IMG/VR virus record: IMGVR_UViG_3300012952_000091
Coordinates: 1 to 28,465 of that record
Strand: one strand, 5' to 3'
Origin: a virus
Lineage: Duplodnaviria > Caudoviricetes
Length of the DNA stretch: 28,465 nt
Shown: one piece after another, positions 2,336-27,434 of the stretch
How positions within the stretch are numbered: the stretch's first letter is position 1
Layout of the letters: every line of letters begins with the position of its first letter
Translations under genes and position numbers: made by a program
Notes under the pieces: model-generated
Told to the model about the DNA's origin: nothing
Database searches by the model: none
Seen by the model: the letters and a program-made list of their open reading frames with translations, nothing else

Positions 2336-3772
2336 TTAAAATGTTCCACCATCTATAGCTGTGATTGAAACGGCACCACTTGATACTGTGAAGTTTGCAC
2401 TTGCAAATGAGGCTATACCTTTATTTGAAGTTGATGCATCTTCACCAGCTATTGTGATACTTCCGTCTGCATTAGTCACATCGATACCTTCACCAGCAGT
2501 TAGAGTTCCTTTTGCAAAGTCACCGTTTGAACCGTGACCAATTAGGATTTGACCTGCTGTTGGAGCAGAACCATCTACTGATGTGATTGACCCTGAGAGT
2601 GCAAGACCTGTTGCTTCTATACCACCAAATACTGCATCAAGTGCTGTACCTGAGAATGTTGAAGATGAGTCTGTTGCAGCTCCTAGTGCTACGAACTTTC
2701 CTGTTGAATCATCGAAACCGAAGAAACCAACTTTTGCACCTGATGAGTTGTACTTAAATTTAATACCTCTATCTAGGTTGTCATCTGAACTATCGTCACC
2801 AATTTCGAAAACTGGGTCTGCAATAGAAACAGTAGTTGAGTTAACAGTTGTAGTTGTACCACTAACTGTCAAGTTTCCTGCGATTGTAACATTATCAGGA
2901 AGTCCAATTGTGATTTGATTTCCTGAACCTGCTGTTTCGATTTCGTTGGCTGTACCAACGATTGAAAGTGTTTCACTATCTAGATCGATTGACAATGCAC
3001 CACCTGAGTCACCTTGGAAATCCAAGTCTTGAGCAGTGATTTGTGTATCTACATAATCTTTAATTGCAGCCGAAGTTGCAATTGTTGTATCGTTATCGTT
3101 TGATCCAATCCCCTCGGATTCTGTTACCAACATTGCAGCTGCTAAAGAACCGATTACGACTGAACTTGCAGCCAACTTGTCTGCATCCACCGCGTCATTT
3201 GCGATAGTTAATGCACCGTTTGCTGCTAGGGTTGCGTCTCCTGATACTGGTTTGTTATCAAATGAATCAGACCCGTCATGAATCAGAATATGTCCTGACC
3301 CCGCACCTGAAATATTTGTATCTGAAGCACCAGCAACCGTTGAAGTTGAAGTTGCGAAGGATAGGTTTCCTGAACCGTCTGTTTGGATAACTTGGTTTGC
3401 AGAACCATCTGAGCCTGGCAATGTGAATACCACATCTCCACCTAATGTATTAGGTGATTTCAATCCAACTGAGTGAGAACCGTTGTCGGTATCTTCCATC
3501 AGTTTTAATGTACCACCTGTAGAGGCACCATTACCAACTTTAAAGTCGGCAGGTGTAGCCGTAGAACCAGCAAGTATATCAGTATAATACTTACCACCGA
3601 TTGCGTGAATCAGGGCAGTAGAGTTATCTGAATCTACTGATTCAATGTATAGTTTTGCACCAGCACCCGAATTAGACCTGTCCTGTACATATGCCAATTC
3701 CCCTTCTGCTAGATTACTAACAGAGGGTGCTGACACACCTGTACTTCGTTTAATCTGAATTACTGTTGACAT
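2336..3772 (-). CDS. Tail fibre protein (478 aa) ending in IDGGTF
   Basis: N-terminal IQIKRS...LAEGELAYV (Mtd_N-like), [23 protein letters not shown] linker, [22 protein letters not shown]...DRGIKF fibre motif; G/S/T/D-rich. Confidence 0.85.
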
Positions 3773-3921: not shown

Positions 3922-4140
3922 CTAGAATGTTCCACCGTCAATAGTGGTCTTAGTGACCCACTTATCGGTGGCTTGGTCGTATGAGAGTAGACCGTTGTCT
4001 GTTTCTGTTGCGTTGACATCAAGAAGTTCGTTGATAGACTTCTGTGTTAAGTCTGCTTGAACTGTAGTTGAGTTTCCAATTGCAACCTGTTTTGCTCTGA
4101 TTTGATTACCTTGTAGAACTCTTGCTTTAATATTTGACAT
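3922..4140 (-). CDS. Small virion-associated protein (72 aa) ending in IDGGTF
   Basis: Tightly packed ORF. SINELLDVNATETDNGLLSYDQATDKWV resembles the L-x-D-V...G-x-x-L-x-Y...W fibre repeat. Confidence 0.8.
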   Translation of the reverse strand: MSNIKARVLQGNQIRAKQVAIGNSTTVQADLTQKSINELLDVNATETDNGLLSYDQATDKWVTKTTIDGGTF

Positions 4141-4142
4141 AA

Positions 4143-4478
4143 TTACCTCGTCACGCCTGGTGTAAGAATTGCTTGACCTTCAACAACACGGGTTGTTTCT
4201 GAGGTCGAAGTCTTAGTTATATTTAGGTCATAAACATATCTACCAGCTTCCATTGCATTTGTTTGAGTATCAGTTAATGTTAAGGTAACTTGTCCAGCAG
4301 ATGCATTGATAGATGTTGCAAAGGTTTGAGTTGCATTAGTTGAACTATATGTCTTTCTAATTTGTGAAGCTGCAGTGTAACCAGTTAAGTCTAGTATCTC
4401 TCCAGCACTATCCGTACAATCTACAGTGATTGCATAGTCTGTTCCTTGGTCGATGAATAAATTTGCTATAATGGCCAT
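4143..4478 (-). CDS. Conserved virion protein (111 aa), BppU-N-like Ig fold
   Basis: IDQGTDY...DLTGYTAASQIRK...LTLTDTQT...GRYVYDL...RVVEG...PGVT pattern, recognised from marine T4-like phage tail regions. Confidence 0.8.
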   Translation of the reverse strand: MAIIANLFIDQGTDYAITVDCTDSAGEILDLTGYTAASQIRKTYSSTNATQTFATSINASAGQVTLTLTDTQTNAMEAGRYVYDLNITKTSTSETTRVVEGQAILTPGVTR

Positions 4479-4483
4479 AATAC

Positions 4484-4491
4484 TATTTATC
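4484..4491 (-). promoter_or_regulatory. Variant late promoter (GATAAATA) 5 nt before ATG
   Basis: ATAAATAGTATTATG, identical to the gp25 promoter/start context. Confidence 0.6.
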
Positions 4492-6019
4492 CTTTTAAGA
4501 ACTGTGCATTAGGCACTGATTGGTGAATTTTTTCAACATTAGTTGGTTGTGGCCCTTGAGGTGCATTTACATATACCTCTTGTGCTTTTCTTAGAGTTCC
4601 ACCTTCGTTTACGAATACACCTTTCACTTTTGCAAGTGGCCCTATCTCTCTTGTCAATGAATAAGGTTGTTGATACAAGAATGGTGACCTGTAATCATAT
4701 GTGTAAGGATAAGGATTCTGATATGTACTAGGTTGTCTTGCATTTGCAATATAAGGTTGCTGTGCATTTACTGGATTTGCATATGTAAATGGTGACCTAT
4801 AGTCATAGTTATGTGGTTCTCTCGCATTTGCAATATACGGATACGGTTGTTGTGCATTACTTGGTTGTCTTGCATTTGCAATATACGGATATGTTGCTTG
4901 TGCTGACAACGGGTTAGATTCCTGTGCTGACACTGGGTTTGCATGGTTTATAACCGTCTGTGTACTACGGCCTGGATTAGGTTGTTGTATATTTGCAATA
5001 TACGGATACGGTGTTTGTCCTTGTCTTTCATAGGTAAATGGTGATCTATGATGATAAGTGTATGGGTATGGATTTTGTACATTAACATCGTAAGGACTTC
5101 TACCCTGTCTTGCATATGTGAATGGGTGTTGATAAGTTGTAGGCCCTCTCACATTTCCAATATTTGAGAGAACAGGAGTTCTTCCTATTAAAGGTGCAGT
5201 CGCAGGTTGTTGGAAAGCATATGGCCCAACATAAGGCCCACCTTGTCCAGTTACAGGTGTTCTGTTTTGTGCAAGATACGGATAAGGTTGTTGAGATGCA
5301 ATTGCTTGTACACCGCCTGGCACTTGCCCAGGCTGTTGGAACGGATACGGAGATGGTTGTCTATATGTAAACGGCCCACCATCAGGTGAATAAAATGGAA
5401 TCTGTATTTGTACTAGGGTCTGAGCTTGTCCAATAACAGGAACCGTGCCTGACACTTGCCCAATCACTGGACTCTGTACAATTGCCTGAGTATTAGATGG
5501 TTGTCTTGCTTGTGCAATATAAGGATACGGTTGCTGAGCACTTCCGATAGTAGGTGTTCTACCAGTTGCATTTCTAATATTCGGTTGTTGAATATTCGCC
5601 TGATATGGATAGGGTGTTTGTCCCTGTCTTGTATAAGTAAACGGTGATGCATATTCGTATATACTAGGTTGTCTAGTAGTATACGGATTCTGATAGGTGA
5701 ACGGACTTTGTTGTTGATAAGTATATGAAGTCTGTCCCTGTCTAGCGTATGTAAAAGGATGTTGATAAGTAAAAGGGGTTCGTCCAGTTCTCTGATAAGT
5801 GAACGGAGACTGTCTCTGTCTTATGTTAGGTTCCTGTGCGCTTACCTGATTTTGGTATGTAAATGGACTTCTATTCTGATAGGTAAACGGTGCCTGAGCG
5901 TTAGCAGGATAAGTACCGACTATATTTCTTATATTCGGTTGTTGGGCATTCTTTATTATTTGACCTTGATAAGGTTGTTGAAATGTTGTCCCTATGTTTA
6001 AATAAATTTCATCAGACAT
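4487..6019 (-). CDS. Q/P/Y/T-rich repeat protein (510 aa), putative fibre-tip adhesin forming a long beta-hairpin
   Basis: Long ORF with SPFTY, QQPYPYIANA, RQGQTP and ARQPSN repeats. C-terminal KVKGVFVNEGGTLRKAQEVYVN. Starts immediately after the fibre gene stop. Confidence 0.8.
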   Translation of the reverse strand: MSDEIYLNIGTTFQQPYQGQIIKNAQQPNIRNIVGTYPANAQAPFTYQNRSPFTYQNQVSAQEPNIRQRQSPFTYQRTGRTPFTYQHPFTYARQGQTSYTYQQQSPFTYQNPYTTRQPSIYEYASPFTYTRQGQTPYPYQANIQQPNIRNATGRTPTIGSAQQPYPYIAQARQPSNTQAIVQSPVIGQVSGTVPVIGQAQTLVQIQIPFYSPDGGPFTYRQPSPYPFQQPGQVPGGVQAIASQQPYPYLAQNRTPVTGQGGPYVGPYAFQQPATAPLIGRTPVLSNIGNVRGPTTYQHPFTYARQGRSPYDVNVQNPYPYTYHHRSPFTYERQGQTPYPYIANIQQPNPGRSTQTVINHANPVSAQESNPLSAQATYPYIANARQPSNAQQPYPYIANAREPHNYDYRSPFTYANPVNAQQPYIANARQPSTYQNPYPYTYDYRSPFLYQQPYSLTREIGPLAKVKGVFVNEGGTLRKAQEVYVNAPQGPQPTNVEKIHQSVPNAQFLKG

Positions 6020-6020
6020 A

Positions 6021-7298
6021 TCATACTACAAACCAAAGGTGACCAGTCGCAGAACTGCCGACACCTGTTGGTGCAGAAGAGACTATTTCATAATCCAGTT
6101 CAATGTTGTCACTATTGATTTCTATCCCGTTTGAAGTGTTTGCACTTATAACACCTGAACTACTAAAATCGATACCAGCTCCACCTGTCAAATATGACTG
6201 TACATTTGAATTATCATATTGAGATGCAGCCGAGAATGCAAGTGTATCTGTTGCATCATCGTAGGTAACTGTTATATTACTATGAGTTGCAGAAGTTATC
6301 ATGGTTGCTGCAGCGTCCATTGCTCTCTCATCAGTAAAGTATAGGTTCGTTCCTTCTGTTACTGTAGTAGTTGTTTGTTTATCTACTGGTTCATAATCAC
6401 CACTGGTTGAATTATATGCTAATATCTGTCCGTTAGTTGGGTTAGTGCCACTAACATCACTCAAAGATTTGATAGAATGATTTGTGATACTAGACACGGT
6501 TCCTGTTAATGCACCTGTTGATGCATCTAATACAACTGAACCACTATGTTTGACATCACCTGTGACATCTCCAGTTACATTTCCTGTTAAATTTCCAACC
6601 AATGCAGTTGAAGTTATGGAACTAAATCCTGTTCCAACACCACCTGTAATTGTTGCAGTGCCATCTGTATATGTTGGTGCAGTTAAAGTTTTACCACTTG
6701 CAAGTGTTAAGTTTTCTTCACCGTAAGTTGCACCAGCTAATTGAACTGTAAATCCTGATTGTAATTCGGTAGTTCTTGAAGAACTGTCTCCATTTAATAT
6801 AACTCCATTTGAGTTAATATTGTAAATTGTATTTGCAGCTGTTTCTGTAAACTGACCAGTTGCGCCACCAGCACCACCACCATCACCTACTGCAGAACCA
6901 GTAAATGTGTAGATGTTTATAATGTCACCTACTGTTGCACCTGAGTTAAGTGTTATTGAATTTGATATACCAGCACTTGGTGCAGATACAGTAAAATCGT
7001 TACCTTCATTTAAGTGGTTACCATTTTTGAATACTTGGAATCTACCAGCTCTAATCTTTACTGTTTTACTATCAGTTTCATGAGAAGAGTTAAATGTTGT
7101 TTGAGATGCAGTTGCGGTAAATGTAAAGTTATCAAAGTAGAAAGTCTTATTTTCTAATTCATTAATTGCATCTACTAAGTTGTTACCATTATTGATATTA
7201 CCACTGAGGCCAGAAATAGTCCCGACATCATTTGCCAACTTATTGTAATTACCTCTAAACTCTTCTAAAGTTTGATTTCTGTTTACTGTTCTAGCCAT
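6021..7298 (-). CDS. Tail fibre protein (425 aa)
   Basis: N-terminal TLEEFR...NLVDAINEL helical segment, Ig-like FTATASQTTF...VFKNG module, GNLTGNVTGDVTGDV beta repeats, TEGTNLYFTDERA repeat, C-terminal SSAPTG...GHLWFVV. Confidence 0.85.
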   Translation of the reverse strand: MARTVNRNQTLEEFRGNYNKLANDVGTISGLSGNINNGNNLVDAINELENKTFYFDNFTFTATASQTTFNSSHETDSKTVKIRAGRFQVFKNGNHLNEGNDFTVSAPSAGISNSITLNSGATVGDIINIYTFTGSAVGDGGGAGGATGQFTETAANTIYNINSNGVILNGDSSSRTTELQSGFTVQLAGATYGEENLTLASGKTLTAPTYTDGTATITGGVGTGFSSITSTALVGNLTGNVTGDVTGDVKHSGSVVLDASTGALTGTVSSITNHSIKSLSDVSGTNPTNGQILAYNSTSGDYEPVDKQTTTTVTEGTNLYFTDERAMDAAATMITSATHSNITVTYDDATDTLAFSAASQYDNSNVQSYLTGGAGIDFSSSGVISANTSNGIEINSDNIELDYEIVSSAPTGVGSSATGHLWFVV

Positions 7299-22771: not shown

Positions 22772-22779
22772 TATTTATA
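22772..22779 (-). promoter_or_regulatory. T4-type late promoter TATAAATA
   Basis: Exact consensus 5 nt before the gp25 ATG. Confidence 0.85.
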
Positions 22780-22782
22780 CAA

Positions 22783-24099
22783 TTAGTTCGGGCTTCCTGT
22801 CTTCGGAGCTGCACTTCCGCCTACACTATGTGTATGTGTTGAAAGTTTAACACCTTTACCTGTAACTTCACCACTTGCAGTGATAGAAGAAGCATTCTTC
22901 TGACTACCTGTAACATTCAATGTACTATGCAACTTAGTTGCTTTAGAAACATCAAGTGTACCCGTTATCGTTGTATCTGATATAATCTCCGTTTTGTTAT
23001 TACCTGTTATTGTTATCTTACCTTCTGATGTCACATCAGTTGTTCCACCAATCTGTCCAGTAAAATTACCCTTAGTTATTTCAGATGTTACATTACCCTC
23101 TGAAACTAACTCAGTTACATTTCCTTTTAAAACTTTTAGGTCAACATTTCCTGTATCGATTGTTATGTTTACATTACCATAACCTACTTGTAAATCTGTA
23201 TTACCAGCTATGAATACTTTATCATCTTTTAGAATTGCAGTGTAGTTGTTGTTTACAATTCTAGTAACCTCAGAACCATCTGCATGTATCTCATGGAATG
23301 TACCTGACCTATGATGTAAGTTGATTCTTTCTTTACCAAGTGTATCGTCTACTTCAAATACATGACCTGATTCGGATTGTGTAACTTTATTATATGGATA
23401 TACTGGTGCAGAATCTACATCAACAAAATCTTTAAGTATCTTTTGTTCATCGGGTATCTCTACTTCATTACCTTCTGCATCTGTTTGTTTTGCAATCTTA
23501 TGATCTAATACTGAACCCCTTGCAAGCGTAGAGTAATCTGACTCATCAACATATAAAGGATAGTATGGTAACATCTCCTTTGTAAGTTCCAACTCTTTGA
23601 TAGTAGAACCTGTATTATCATATTTAACATCGATAGTTTCAGGTGACTTAGGTGCAGTGTCCATTGCAGTAGTAAGACCCCAACCTCTTCTTGAATCTTG
23701 AACTGGGTTTGGTGCTTCAGACCCTTCATTGTAATCTGCAACCGTTAATGCTCTAGGGTCATTGAAACCTTTCTCAATACTTCTAGTTATCAATGCATCA
23801 GTTGTATCTTCTTTGTATCCAGCTTGTGGGATACCAGCTGCAACACCAAGAACTATTGGGTCTTGTTTTGCTTGGTCTCTAAAATATCCAAATACCGTAG
23901 ACCCCTCTACAAGTCCGTGACCTGTTCCTAACCCCGATAGTCCAGCAGATGTTGTTGGAAGTATAACCTGACACCATGGTAAATCTGCAGAGGCGATAAG
24001 AAGTTTATCATCCGTATGGATTCCATGTATACGAACACGGACACGACCAACCTTTAAGGGGTCTTGTCTGTCTTCAACTATTCCGTAAAAATATTCCAT
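22783..24099 (-). CDS. gp5: Baseplate central spike gp5 (OB fold + beta-helix, no lysozyme domain, HxH apex)
   Basis: FYGIVEDRQDPLKVGRVRVRIHGIH...LPW (gp5 OB fold), YPYNKVTQSESGHVFEVDDT...ERINLHHRSGTF, beta-helix repeats, ends LSTHTHSV...TGSPN. Start placed at MEYFYG (24099); an upstream ATG is possible. Confidence 0.9.
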   Translation of the reverse strand: MEYFYGIVEDRQDPLKVGRVRVRIHGIHTDDKLLIASADLPWCQVILPTTSAGLSGLGTGHGLVEGSTVFGYFRDQAKQDPIVLGVAAGIPQAGYKEDTTDALITRSIEKGFNDPRALTVADYNEGSEAPNPVQDSRRGWGLTTAMDTAPKSPETIDVKYDNTGSTIKELELTKEMLPYYPLYVDESDYSTLARGSVLDHKIAKQTDAEGNEVEIPDEQKILKDFVDVDSAPVYPYNKVTQSESGHVFEVDDTLGKERINLHHRSGTFHEIHADGSEVTRIVNNNYTAILKDDKVFIAGNTDLQVGYGNVNITIDTGNVDLKVLKGNVTELVSEGNVTSEITKGNFTGQIGGTTDVTSEGKITITGNNKTEIISDTTITGTLDVSKATKLHSTLNVTGSQKNASSITASGEVTGKGVKLSTHTHSVGGSAAPKTGSPN

Positions 24100-24179
24100 G
24101 TATTCTGCATCCATATAAACAACATAGGTAATCCTACCCATGCTAATAATGTTAAACTAAAATATGTTATCACTTCCAT
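24078..24179 (-). CDS. Putative 33-aa single-pass membrane peptide (not in ORF track)
   Basis: MEVITYFSLTLLAWVGLPMLFIWMQNTWNIFTE*. ATG overlaps the upstream stop (TGATG) and the ORF fills the gap before gp5. Confidence 0.55.
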   Translation of the reverse strand: MEVITYFSLTLLAWVGLPMLFIWMQNTWNIFTE

Positions 24180-26333: not shown

Positions 26334-27434
26334 TTATCCTCCAGTGGATGAGTCAAGAATACTAGGTGAACCACTCTCATCACTTATACTACCTAATCTG
26401 CCTTGAACTTTTTCAGGAGCAACTCTAGATTCATAAACTTCTTGAGACATAACTTTAATCTCTGTAAATTCACATGAAATTTTTGTAAAACCTGAATAGA
26501 ACTCATCATCGTTTTCACTTGCTAACATAAAGTCGGGATTCTCAAGTGGTGTTACTGTGACACCTGTACAAACCATGGGTAAGAATCTTTCTATTTGTTT
26601 TGAAACTGGGCCTTCTATCTCTACCTCAAATACATTCGGATAGTTAAAGAAGTTTTCAGTAGTGTTTTCTGAATCCTCTCCATCACCAGCTGCAAATGTG
26701 TCGGGTAACATTGCAACTCTGAATGCATGAATGATTTGTTGAACCATGATTGCTTCTTTTTCTGATCTTGGATACATATCCCATGCAAATGAATGTGTTC
26801 TAAAGTCTATACCTTCTAATAGTTGTTCTTCCATAGGGTTGACTGCTCGTCCAGCACGAAGGTTACCTACACCTGACCCCATCGAACCAATTGCATTTTG
26901 AATAAATCCTTTTCCAGCGTTTACTGCTTCTTCAAATACCCCACCTGCGTCTTCACCACCTTGAATTGCACCTGATACCCCTCTTGCAAATGCACCTATA
27001 CTTTCAGTCTTGTATGTTACTTTAGATTCTTGATTCCATCCACCCTCAGGCAATGGTAATGCAATCGTAACTGGTGTATCTGAAATTAAGTTTCCACCAC
27101 TTGTTCTTTTCTTTCTCAAACGAGTAGTAAATAACATGAAGTTATCGATATCACCATCTAAAGGATATTGTAAATCTCTGTGTCCTCCTGATGGAGCTCT
27201 TTTTGCTTTTCCTTTTGACTTGGTTGCACTGTCTAAACTTTTCTGTAAGGTTGCTCTTCTTTGTTCTAGTTTCCTTCTTCCTTCTTCTGCTTGTGCTTGG
27301 AGTTTGTCGACCTCTTCTGTATTGACACCTCCTTTGTAACCTATACTTTCAAGTTTGGATTTAATCCCTTTAACTGATTTTACGGCTTGAGATGCTTGGT
27401 TGATTTTGTCTAATAATTTGTTGATACTTGGCAT
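26334..27434 (-). CDS. gp48: Baseplate tail tube cap gp48
   Basis: NPMEEQLLEGIDFRTHSFAWDMYPRSEKEA...IIHAFR...FFNYPNVFEV...EFTEI; adjacent to gp53 and divergent from gp4. Confidence 0.85.
   Translation of the reverse strand: MPSINKLLDKINQASQAVKSVKGIKSKLESIGYKGGVNTEEVDKLQAQAEEGRRKLEQRRATLQKSLDSATKSKGKAKRAPSGGHRDLQYPLDGDIDNFMLFTTRLRKKRTSGGNLISDTPVTIALPLPEGGWNQESKVTYKTESIGAFARGVSGAIQGGEDAGGVFEEAVNAGKGFIQNAIGSMGSGVGNLRAGRAVNPMEEQLLEGIDFRTHSFAWDMYPRSEKEAIMVQQIIHAFRVAMLPDTFAAGDGEDSENTTENFFNYPNVFEVEIEGPVSKQIERFLPMVCTGVTVTPLENPDFMLASENDDEFYSGFTKISCEFTEIKVMSQEVYESRVAPEKVQGRLGSISDESGSPSILDSSTGG

Follow-up and report, generated by a model that had tools for sequence, protein, structure and literature searches.

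How might a phage fibre protein be folded when its prolines and short motifs run in one order along the first half of the chain and in the reverse order along the second, and what might such a protein do on the virion? This question is raised by a Q/P/Y-rich gene in the 28,465-nucleotide stretch of viral DNA analyzed here (the window). An earlier reading of the letters alone (the sequence-only reading) had proposed that the encoded chain folds back on itself as a giant beta-hairpin with a pairing code between its arms. We compared the protein with its relatives, scored the match between its arms and used structure prediction to assess this proposal.

Genomic setting of the proposed hairpin gene

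The 28-kb window holds a T4-like tail and baseplate cluster whose products match PHROG families for baseplate wedge, hub, tail-tube cap, head closure and fibres. Its wedge protein has a best identity of 42% to Methylophilales phage Melnitz and is 39-41% identical to those of Pelagibacter myophages. The gene of interest and its immediate neighbors are as follows.

4487..6019, minus strand: hairpin fibre gene, Q/P/Y-rich (510 aa ORF)
6021..7298, minus strand: upstream fibre-like gene, 425 aa, predicted docking partner and likely trimeric (from adjacency and weak shaft likeness)
6024..6086, minus strand: conserved C-terminal AP...GHLW motif of the upstream fibre, aa 405-425 (from the alignment, the loci and the interface model)
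4143..4478, minus strand: downstream gene, 111 aa (PHROG 3304 'L-shaped tail fiber protein assembly', E 1e-21)

The hairpin ORF has no Pfam, PHROG or PDB match by sequence, and no cultured phage with a match to the gene was found with the low-complexity filter on. Near-identical DNA is present in marine and aquatic metagenomes, where 14 runs hold at least half of the words of the ORF, 6 of the 14 being possible sources. In run X7, which lies outside these possible sources, two overlapping contigs span the ORF gaplessly, differing from it in 0 and 1 letters, which rules out an assembly artefact as its origin. RNA library X15 holds two near-identical pieces of the gene, which are insufficient to show transcription. 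One MAG contig is probably binned phage, and we therefore claim no host.

Perfect T4-type late promoter motifs (TATAAATA) occur in the window at 22779, 15756, 15745, 3918 and 994 on the minus strand and at 27434 on the plus strand, none of them directly upstream of the hairpin gene. Among the relatives described below, none of 48 fused and none of 37 split loci has the TATAAATA motif in the 120 nt upstream. Elsewhere in the window, the gp5-like hub (22783-24141) is only 452 residues long and matches the N-terminal and spike parts, a lysozyme domain not being evident within the PHROG ranges.

Parts of the protein and its internal mirror

The 510-residue protein is 14.3% Gln, 13.3% Pro and 10.0% Tyr. 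It contains 6.3% Gly with no run longer than two, no Trp, seven scattered His residues, no HxH and no LPXTG. On the evidence given in the following sections it can be divided into these parts.

5975..6019, minus strand: N-terminal base strand (aa 1-15), first of three xI(Y/F)(V/I/L)N pseudo-repeats, with conserved I5, Y6 and N8
5486..5983, minus strand: N-arm (aa 13-178), outgoing strand of the predicted ribbon (mirror, covariation, AF2 strands 13-36 and 44-77)
5138..5485, minus strand: tip (aa 179-294), 116 residues, variable among relatives (comparison of relatives)
5345..5431, minus strand: predicted side finger, a hairpin of aa 197-225 inside the tip (both AF2 models)
4643..5137, minus strand: C-arm (aa 295-459), returning strand of the predicted ribbon (mirror, AF2 strands 395-428 and 436-459)
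4490..4642, minus strand: C-terminal cap (aa 460-510), base pseudo-repeats two and three (conserved; F469 and Y483 contacts in the model)

All 30 of the positions that the sequence-only reading listed as prolines are prolines. The anti-diagonal i+j=474 is the strongest in the protein and holds 11 proline-proline pairs, the nine originally claimed together with 208/266 and 212/262, and i+j=473 holds seven, the six claimed together with 226/247. The named motif pairings can be seen to stand opposite each other in a mirrored print-out of the sequence. The standing of this pattern against chance depends on how much of it is counted. The nine pairs of a single diagonal are matched by 330 and 353 of 1000 module shuffles and by 12 of 1000 residue shuffles, so that one diagonal alone lies within module-shuffle chance, whereas the two-diagonal count of 15 is reached by none of 1000 shuffles in each of three nulls and a gapped proline-pattern score by 0, 0 and 1 of 150 shuffles, these statistics having been picked after the data were seen.

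Inversion of DNA was considered as the source of the mirror and rejected, as neither the hairpin gene nor the related locus L157 contains an inverted repeat that would account for the match; merely two short inverted repeats are present.

Relatives with fused and split arms

A search returned 438 proteins, 120 of the 438 being among the matches listed, with 140 representatives at 50% identity; further loci were taken from viral and metagenome collections. Sorting of these relatives yields 85 distinct fused proteins along with 38 split pairs. In a split pair, the first gene encodes the N-arm with, instead of the tip, a globular head at its distal end, and the next gene encodes the C-arm and the cap. 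Three fused proteins (L103, L108 and L109) were missed by the pattern and lie outside these counts, and L194, L240 and X-containing rows were dropped, giving 82 fused and 37 split units. The gene order is strictly kept. All loci with at least 1.5 kb of upstream DNA (43 of 43 fused, 32 of 32 split) have the fibre-like gene next to the hairpin gene on that side, and the 111-aa gene is its downstream neighbor in every locus counted (45 of 45 fused, 38 of 38 split). A tree built from this downstream gene (68 rows, 111 columns), a short marker in which recombination is possible, shows seven changes of the fused or split state, and at least four of these changes are forced by well-supported branches.

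The relatives also include a paralogous two-gene system, K and W, with 23 pairs (L135-L191, for example L157:2854-7025), which in several of the same contigs lies some kilobases from the hairpin locus. The K/W arms carry the same code and reach ~540 residues. Their base is permuted: where the hairpin protein has one N-terminal and two C-terminal base repeats, K has three like repeats at its N-terminus and W has an RWD...WP strand at its C-terminus. Between K and W, 15 of the 23 pairs have one or two small acidic genes of 85-100 aa (L137:4340-4627, L148:5025-5285, L178:4671-5194). The one that was scanned has no family match, and the product is possibly a head-binding or chaperone protein.

The mirror is kept up across relatives

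In a fixed register anchored at the base, offset 0 gives 4.95 proline-proline pairs for the 82 fused and 6.57 for the 37 split units, and offsets 1-5 give at most 1.46. A cross-validated residue-pair matrix was used to rank 22-23 candidate C-arms for each cluster. The cognate arm comes out on top in 23 of 30 fused and 13 of 15 split clusters, together 36 of 45, and falls behind another in the remaining nine. The same procedure with 16 candidates, applied to 32 of the 45 clusters, puts the cognate arm first in 22 of 32 in antiparallel orientation versus 3 of 32 in parallel. Six of the 30 fused clusters mirror weakly, with scores of 20-46 (L032, L034, L036, L039, P0094 and P0109).

The match carries over from one system to the other. 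Under the matrix from the other system, all 23 K/W pairs score 201-510 antiparallel and 14-30 parallel over ~205-540 residues, and the six K/W alignments printed are gapless, or almost so, over up to 540 residues. The arms of the window protein, scored with a matrix learnt solely on the paralogous gene pairs, give 80.5 antiparallel and 16.1 parallel, a value reached by none of 200 module shuffles (30.2 +/- 5.0). This alignment sets residues 24-178 opposite 450-295 with a single one-residue slip. A stretch of the stalk at window 5645-5722 and 4904-4978, near aa 348-372 in the C-arm, combines a poor match with a one-residue register slip and could be a hinge; the close relatives L001, L202 and L205 are gapless and lack it.

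The lengths of the two arms are closely matched. Split-pair arm lengths correlate with r=0.988 (31 distinct pairs), 36 of 37 pairs differ by no more than 20 aa, and K/W arm lengths correlate with r=0.98 (16 distinct pairs); head length in the split pairs gives r=-0.13. The ends of the split arms were set by a composition rule blind to the partner, an initial rule that stopped early having given r=-0.29. Within the fused clade, rows with both anchor motifs have an arm-length difference of 4 in 15 of 18 cases and of 3 in two of 18, across six arm lengths from 130 to 188.

The sequence-only reading held that a change in length would require paired indels in both arms. Of five K/W comparisons, four have each arm indel matched by one of the same size in the other arm, the paired sizes being, by comparison, 16/16; 2/2; 12/12 and two of 2/2; and 18/18, 8/8 and 12/12, all at mirrored places except for one loosely placed 18/18. 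Kin among the relatives are not independent, and these mirror and indel counts overstate the number of events. Changes are thus mostly paired and arm lengths matched, but the rule is not absolute: P0012, known from one contig, has lost 36 aa from its C-arm only, possibly by repeat collapse, and L152 has a 20-aa insertion in one arm, at the distal end. The K arm of L177 is 80 aa longer by a heuristic measure. The mirror feature is real and selected.

Register and predicted structure of the stalk

Covariation between the arms bears out an inter-arm signal near i+j~470. With the arms aligned separately, 24 of the top 60 inter-arm pairs fall at i+j 470-478, against a background of 5.7% and 1-7 pairs when partners are permuted; they lie mainly at 472, 470 and 474, with a peak at 472. 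This analysis covers the proximal ~110 residues with ~37 effective sequences, data that it shares with the AF2 prediction. The cognate-specific antiparallel match, the covariation and the matched arms together uphold the proposed fold-back, and we consider it very probable that the arms pair in antiparallel fashion.

The AF2 model (83 rows) forms strands 13-36/436-459 and 44-77/395-428, the ends of both of which sum to 472, a register read from the strand ends and not from a contact map. The full model contains no helix; its mean pLDDT is 45.7 and its pTM 0.22, with residues 85-206 and 220-388 mostly below 50. A separate model of residues 120-352 (20 rows, pLDDT 42.6) has one finger and no distal stem. 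Prediction therefore forms the proximal antiparallel strands that the sequence-only reading called for but leaves the distal stem unformed, at low confidence. The detailed register also needs amending: the pairing is antiparallel, but rather than lying face to face at 474 the prolines are, from covariation and AF2, likely staggered by two at i+j=472. For the proximal ~65 residues beta-strands are predicted at this register. The 116-residue tip, with at least one predicted side finger, would close the hairpin. The finger strands are 200-205/217-222 in the full model and 197-205/217-225 in the 120-352 model, where the 10-residue blocks have pLDDT 59 and 62. Stem scores hint at a second tip finger, and so a forked tip, in L202, L205, L013, L210 and L019, with no clear sign of one in the window protein.

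Foldseek searches of the low-confidence model against PDB and BFVD gave no match at E 0.001, and some ~40-column matches to uncharacterised phage proteins may represent the base module. VIA-align returned four chains at Z 2.1-2.8 (long hairpins of pore barrels and the phi29 collar; best Z 2.8, rmsd 11.7 over 114 residues), which show hairpin shape only, and ESM Atlas matches are all below 0.9 and serve as leads only. Blank structure searches with a low-confidence model do not show that the fold is new.

A pairing code between the arms

At register 472 the residue pairs follow simple rules, counted over 55 pairs after six weak clusters were dropped, with alignments that used a matrix fitted to these data and kin that are not independent. 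Aromatic-aromatic pairs are almost absent (7 observed versus 504 expected), and 1159 of the 1168 intervals separating paired prolines are even in length. On one face, made up of Pro, Gln, Thr, Arg, Asn and Ile, Pro is paired with Gln or Arg, and Thr with Asn. Aromatics occupy the other face (31% Tyr+Phe), where they nearly always stand opposite Ala, Gly, Val or Arg. A code at the level of modules, as originally proposed, is also seen: units of type A (aromatic, 'PFTY') lie opposite type B or C ('PYI/PNI' or 'PVN/PAN') in 854 of 895 typed unit pairs, whichever arm each occupies. The typing is crude, and of the 12 segments in the window protein seven pair A with B or C, two are B-B, one is A-A and two are untyped on a side. 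With ~155-165 residues per arm and an assumed 0.30-0.33 nm per residue, the stalk would be 46-55 nm long.

Predicted docking on the upstream fibre

The C-terminus of the upstream fibre is strongly conserved, with D-Y-E, A-P and G-H-L-W invariant in 54 rows and the motif present in 84 of 87 loci, and the repeat that precedes the tip has a weak likeness to adenovirus-type fibre shafts (E 0.015-0.058). Under a strict pattern, 13 of the 23 K/W pairs follow a fibre that ends in a like GDLW motif. We folded residues 1-80 and 392-510 of the hairpin protein together with the C-terminal 50 residues of the fibre in three copies. The docking score was 0.65, as against 0.02 for the best of three controls, with at least 93% of contacts agreeing between runs and a partner pLDDT of at least 61. 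Among solved complexes 116 of 157 attain the mark applied, as do 2 of 215 mismatched pairs; these counts carry over only approximately to the present job, which used our own alignments and was unlike the calibration.

In the model, Y6, F469 and Y483 each contact the L-W of a different fibre copy. The base strand (aa 1-15) is predicted to dock one copy, Y6 touching copy 2, and F469 and Y483 of the cap are predicted to touch copies 1 and 3. The model supports, but does not show, binding of the base to a fibre-tip trimer. Prediction may be drawing on memory of a like fold; no solved match by sequence was found for the GHLW motif or the base. A 1:3 arrangement, if right, would mean one hairpin for each trimeric fibre.

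Elsewhere in the fibre cluster, window ORFs 709-942, 2336-3772 and 3922-4140 share a terminal IDGGTF motif, and ORFs 2336-3772 and 1484-2308 have like N-terminal IQIKRS/IKFKRS...GE(L/I)A domains. From their sequences, these ends and domains could possibly form another peptide-plug docking code.

Proposed structure, role and alternatives

We propose, with a probability of roughly 0.7, that the protein is a single two-stranded antiparallel beta-ribbon clamped as one copy on each trimeric fibre tip. The chain would fold back into a long twisted ribbon of ~155-165 residues per arm (46-55 nm), and its pseudo-threefold base, built from one N-terminal and two C-terminal repeats, would bind the three GHLW strands of the fibre trimer. 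The prolines would all lie on one face, at non-hydrogen-bonded sites with the missing NH pointing outward, where they would block edge growth and keep the ribbon two-stranded; such a placement follows from general beta-hairpin geometry. On the other face, Tyr or Phe would pack on a small residue (Ala, Gly or Val) or on an Arg chain across the strand, and this packing would constitute the pairing code. Such a code would fix the register of a repetitive chain, and we infer that one-sided indels are therefore selected against. The distal stem would continue the proximal fold, and the variable tip, held out by the stalk, would bind the host surface.

Given this structure, a role as an adhesin stalk is likely from where the gene lies, from the predicted docking at 3:1, and from a base that is conserved while the tip or head varies. 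The structure might be right and the role another, such as a spacer, drag element, environmental sensor or tether between virion parts. This option, decidedly the less likely of the two, would suit the tip of the window protein, which has no recognisable binding domain, but fits less well with the tip and heads being the variable parts, with globular distal heads in split relatives that are exchangeable and near-identical at two paralogous loci of one genome, and with gp38 adhesins docking in a like manner in the part of the source that describes them (PMC6851490).

Two observations on the heads may be recorded here. Some end in Hint/intein-like domains (L017:4157-5977, L140:2505-3911, L185:2848-4113; P0040, P0068 and P0073; Pfam, below curated cut-offs), which suggests self-cleavage at the distal end. 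The heads at the N/C pair and the K/W pair of one genome have near-identical C-termini (L023:6001-7242 and L136/L137:2854-4326), a similarity that suggests exchange or conversion of heads between loci.

Among other structures for the stalk, one would keep the antiparallel arms but bundle two or three hairpins on each fibre and so bury the aromatic face, in the manner of the six-stranded gp37 needle but with no iron. A face that is 31% Tyr+Phe would indeed be partly exposed in a lone ribbon, and the needle is itself a trimer of fold-back chains in the account consulted (PMC12609058). Bundling is nevertheless unlikely: the base of one chain is predicted to fill all three sites at the fibre tip, so that the 1:3 docking model points to a monomeric hairpin, there is no HxH motif, and the regular edge prolines would be expected to hinder lateral growth of a sheet.

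Less likely still is pairing of the N-arm of one molecule with the C-arm of another, giving swapped dimers or longer chains. Split relatives do pair arms from separate chains, and covariation is blind to whether a contact is within or between chains, but the turn can be closed by the 116-residue tip, the proximal stem forms inside a single chain in the AF2 model and the gene is fused in several lineages. We regard as equally improbable an antiparallel duplex that is not a beta-ribbon, for example of polyproline-II or mixed strands zipped by Tyr-Pro stacking. The 13% Pro and 10% Tyr, the low AF2 confidence and the antigen I/II precedent, in which the portion of the source describing the stalk has tyrosines locked into PxxP pockets (PMC7732690), favor it; the period-2 alternation and even proline spacing (1159 of 1168) fit beta-strands and not the three-residue period of polyproline-II, the predicted AF2 strands are 24 and 34 residues long, and there is no PxxP run. 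That the mirror arose incidentally, through DNA inversion or because the protein is repetitive, disordered or a solenoid, is already largely refuted, for although one diagonal alone is within module-shuffle chance and the distal half is unformed in AF2 models, there is no DNA inverted repeat in the gene or L157 and the cognate-specific antiparallel match, paired indels, arm-length correlation and covariation all stand against it.

Implications

Long beta structures usually need a core, a barrel or a trimer. If our proposal is true, a lone two-stranded ribbon whose strands are kept in register by a code between them would represent a novel route to long, thin proteins, and among proteins it would be the nearest counterpart of a nucleic-acid duplex. 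We lean, with more reserve than for the ribbon itself, towards a joint claim: that these proteins form a natural protein duplex, either inside one chain or from the products of two genes, whose strands zip together in antiparallel fashion along 150-540 residues following a readable unit code, with length set by staggered prolines and type by aromatic versus small residues, and that the duplex is a coreless 50-170 nm rod plugged as a monomer on a trimeric fibre.

The code can be read from sequence and is testable on short fragments. Its rules look simple enough for new complementary pairs to be written at will and, if true, would give protein design programmable, orthogonal heterodimer rods. 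Under the proposal, the tail fibres of marine T4-like viruses should bear a filament not seen so far and a modular 3:1 plug, formed by a GHLW/GDLW strand trimer and a three-repeat base, for swapping adhesins. It also offers a natural case for how paired insertions arise in two separate genes.

Comparison with known systems

Several known proteins share one or another element of the proposed design. PAAR/gp5.4 caps are small zinc-bound cones in which three pseudo-repeats of a monomer match the end of a trimeric spike, and SMC/Rad50 proteins have long antiparallel coiled-coil arms that fold back and need matched lengths, though these are helical with a heptad pattern. No sequence likeness of the hairpin protein to either group was found.

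The closest parallel for the base is the gp38 adhesin of phage S16 (PDB 6F45), a monomer that caps trimeric gp37 via three contacts 120 degrees apart (PMC6851490). The hairpin protein likewise is predicted to sit as a monomer on a trimeric fibre via three pseudo-equivalent contacts, its gene comes right after the fibre gene and its distal part is variable. However, gp38 as described in the relevant sections of that source has three Trp residues on a three-helix bundle, a beta-helix and a polyglycine sandwich (PMC6851490), whereas the hairpin protein has no Trp, no predicted helix and, at 6.3% Gly with no run above two, no polyglycine. Its base is made of three beta-strand repeats drawn from both chain ends, and its body is a long fold-back stalk.

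For the stalk, the nearest phage structure is the gp37 needle of T4 and Bas63 fibres, a trimer of fold-back chains with six strands and HxH-bound iron, ~150 A long (PMC12609058, PMC3004832). In both cases the distal end of a fibre carries a chain that goes out and returns, forming antiparallel beta-strands, as predicted here for the hairpin protein. Set against the needle as those passages present it, the hairpin protein is a predicted single two-stranded ribbon about three times longer, with no HxH, a unit pairing code and a natural two-gene split. PHROG, Pfam and PDB searches by sequence found no homology to gp37 tip profiles or solved chains.

In the stalk of antigen I/II (SpaP), an alpha-helix and a polyproline-II helix intertwine, with tyrosines locked into PxxP pockets, in the part of the source that treats the stalk (PMC7732690). 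There too one chain uses two distant repeat regions to lift a variable tip over 50 nm, its termini lock at the base, and Tyr and Pro are central. The arms of antigen I/II are unlike each other and it has a sortase anchor, whereas the hairpin protein draws both arms from one pool of units and is predicted to be beta; it has no predicted heptad helix, no PxxP run, evenly spaced prolines and no LPXTG. The G5-E rods of SasG/Aap consist of tandem domains with local triple-stranded sheets along a chain that runs one way (PMC4458895). Like the predicted hairpin they are thin monomeric rods of single-layer beta-sheet that project an adhesin; unlike it, they have in that account neither an end-to-end fold-back nor a two-arm code, and no Pfam family, G5 included, matches the hairpin protein at E 0.01. 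Two further reports on long hairpins describe different things in the portions that bear on this comparison (PMC13055192, PMC13252515).

The hairpin protein does not belong to the gp37-needle, gp38 or antigen I/II families. The sequence-only reading knew of no described phage adhesin built in this way. Fold-back stalks as such are known, in the gp37 needle and antigen I/II, but no description of the two-stranded, code-bearing form was found in open-access PMC and bioRxiv.
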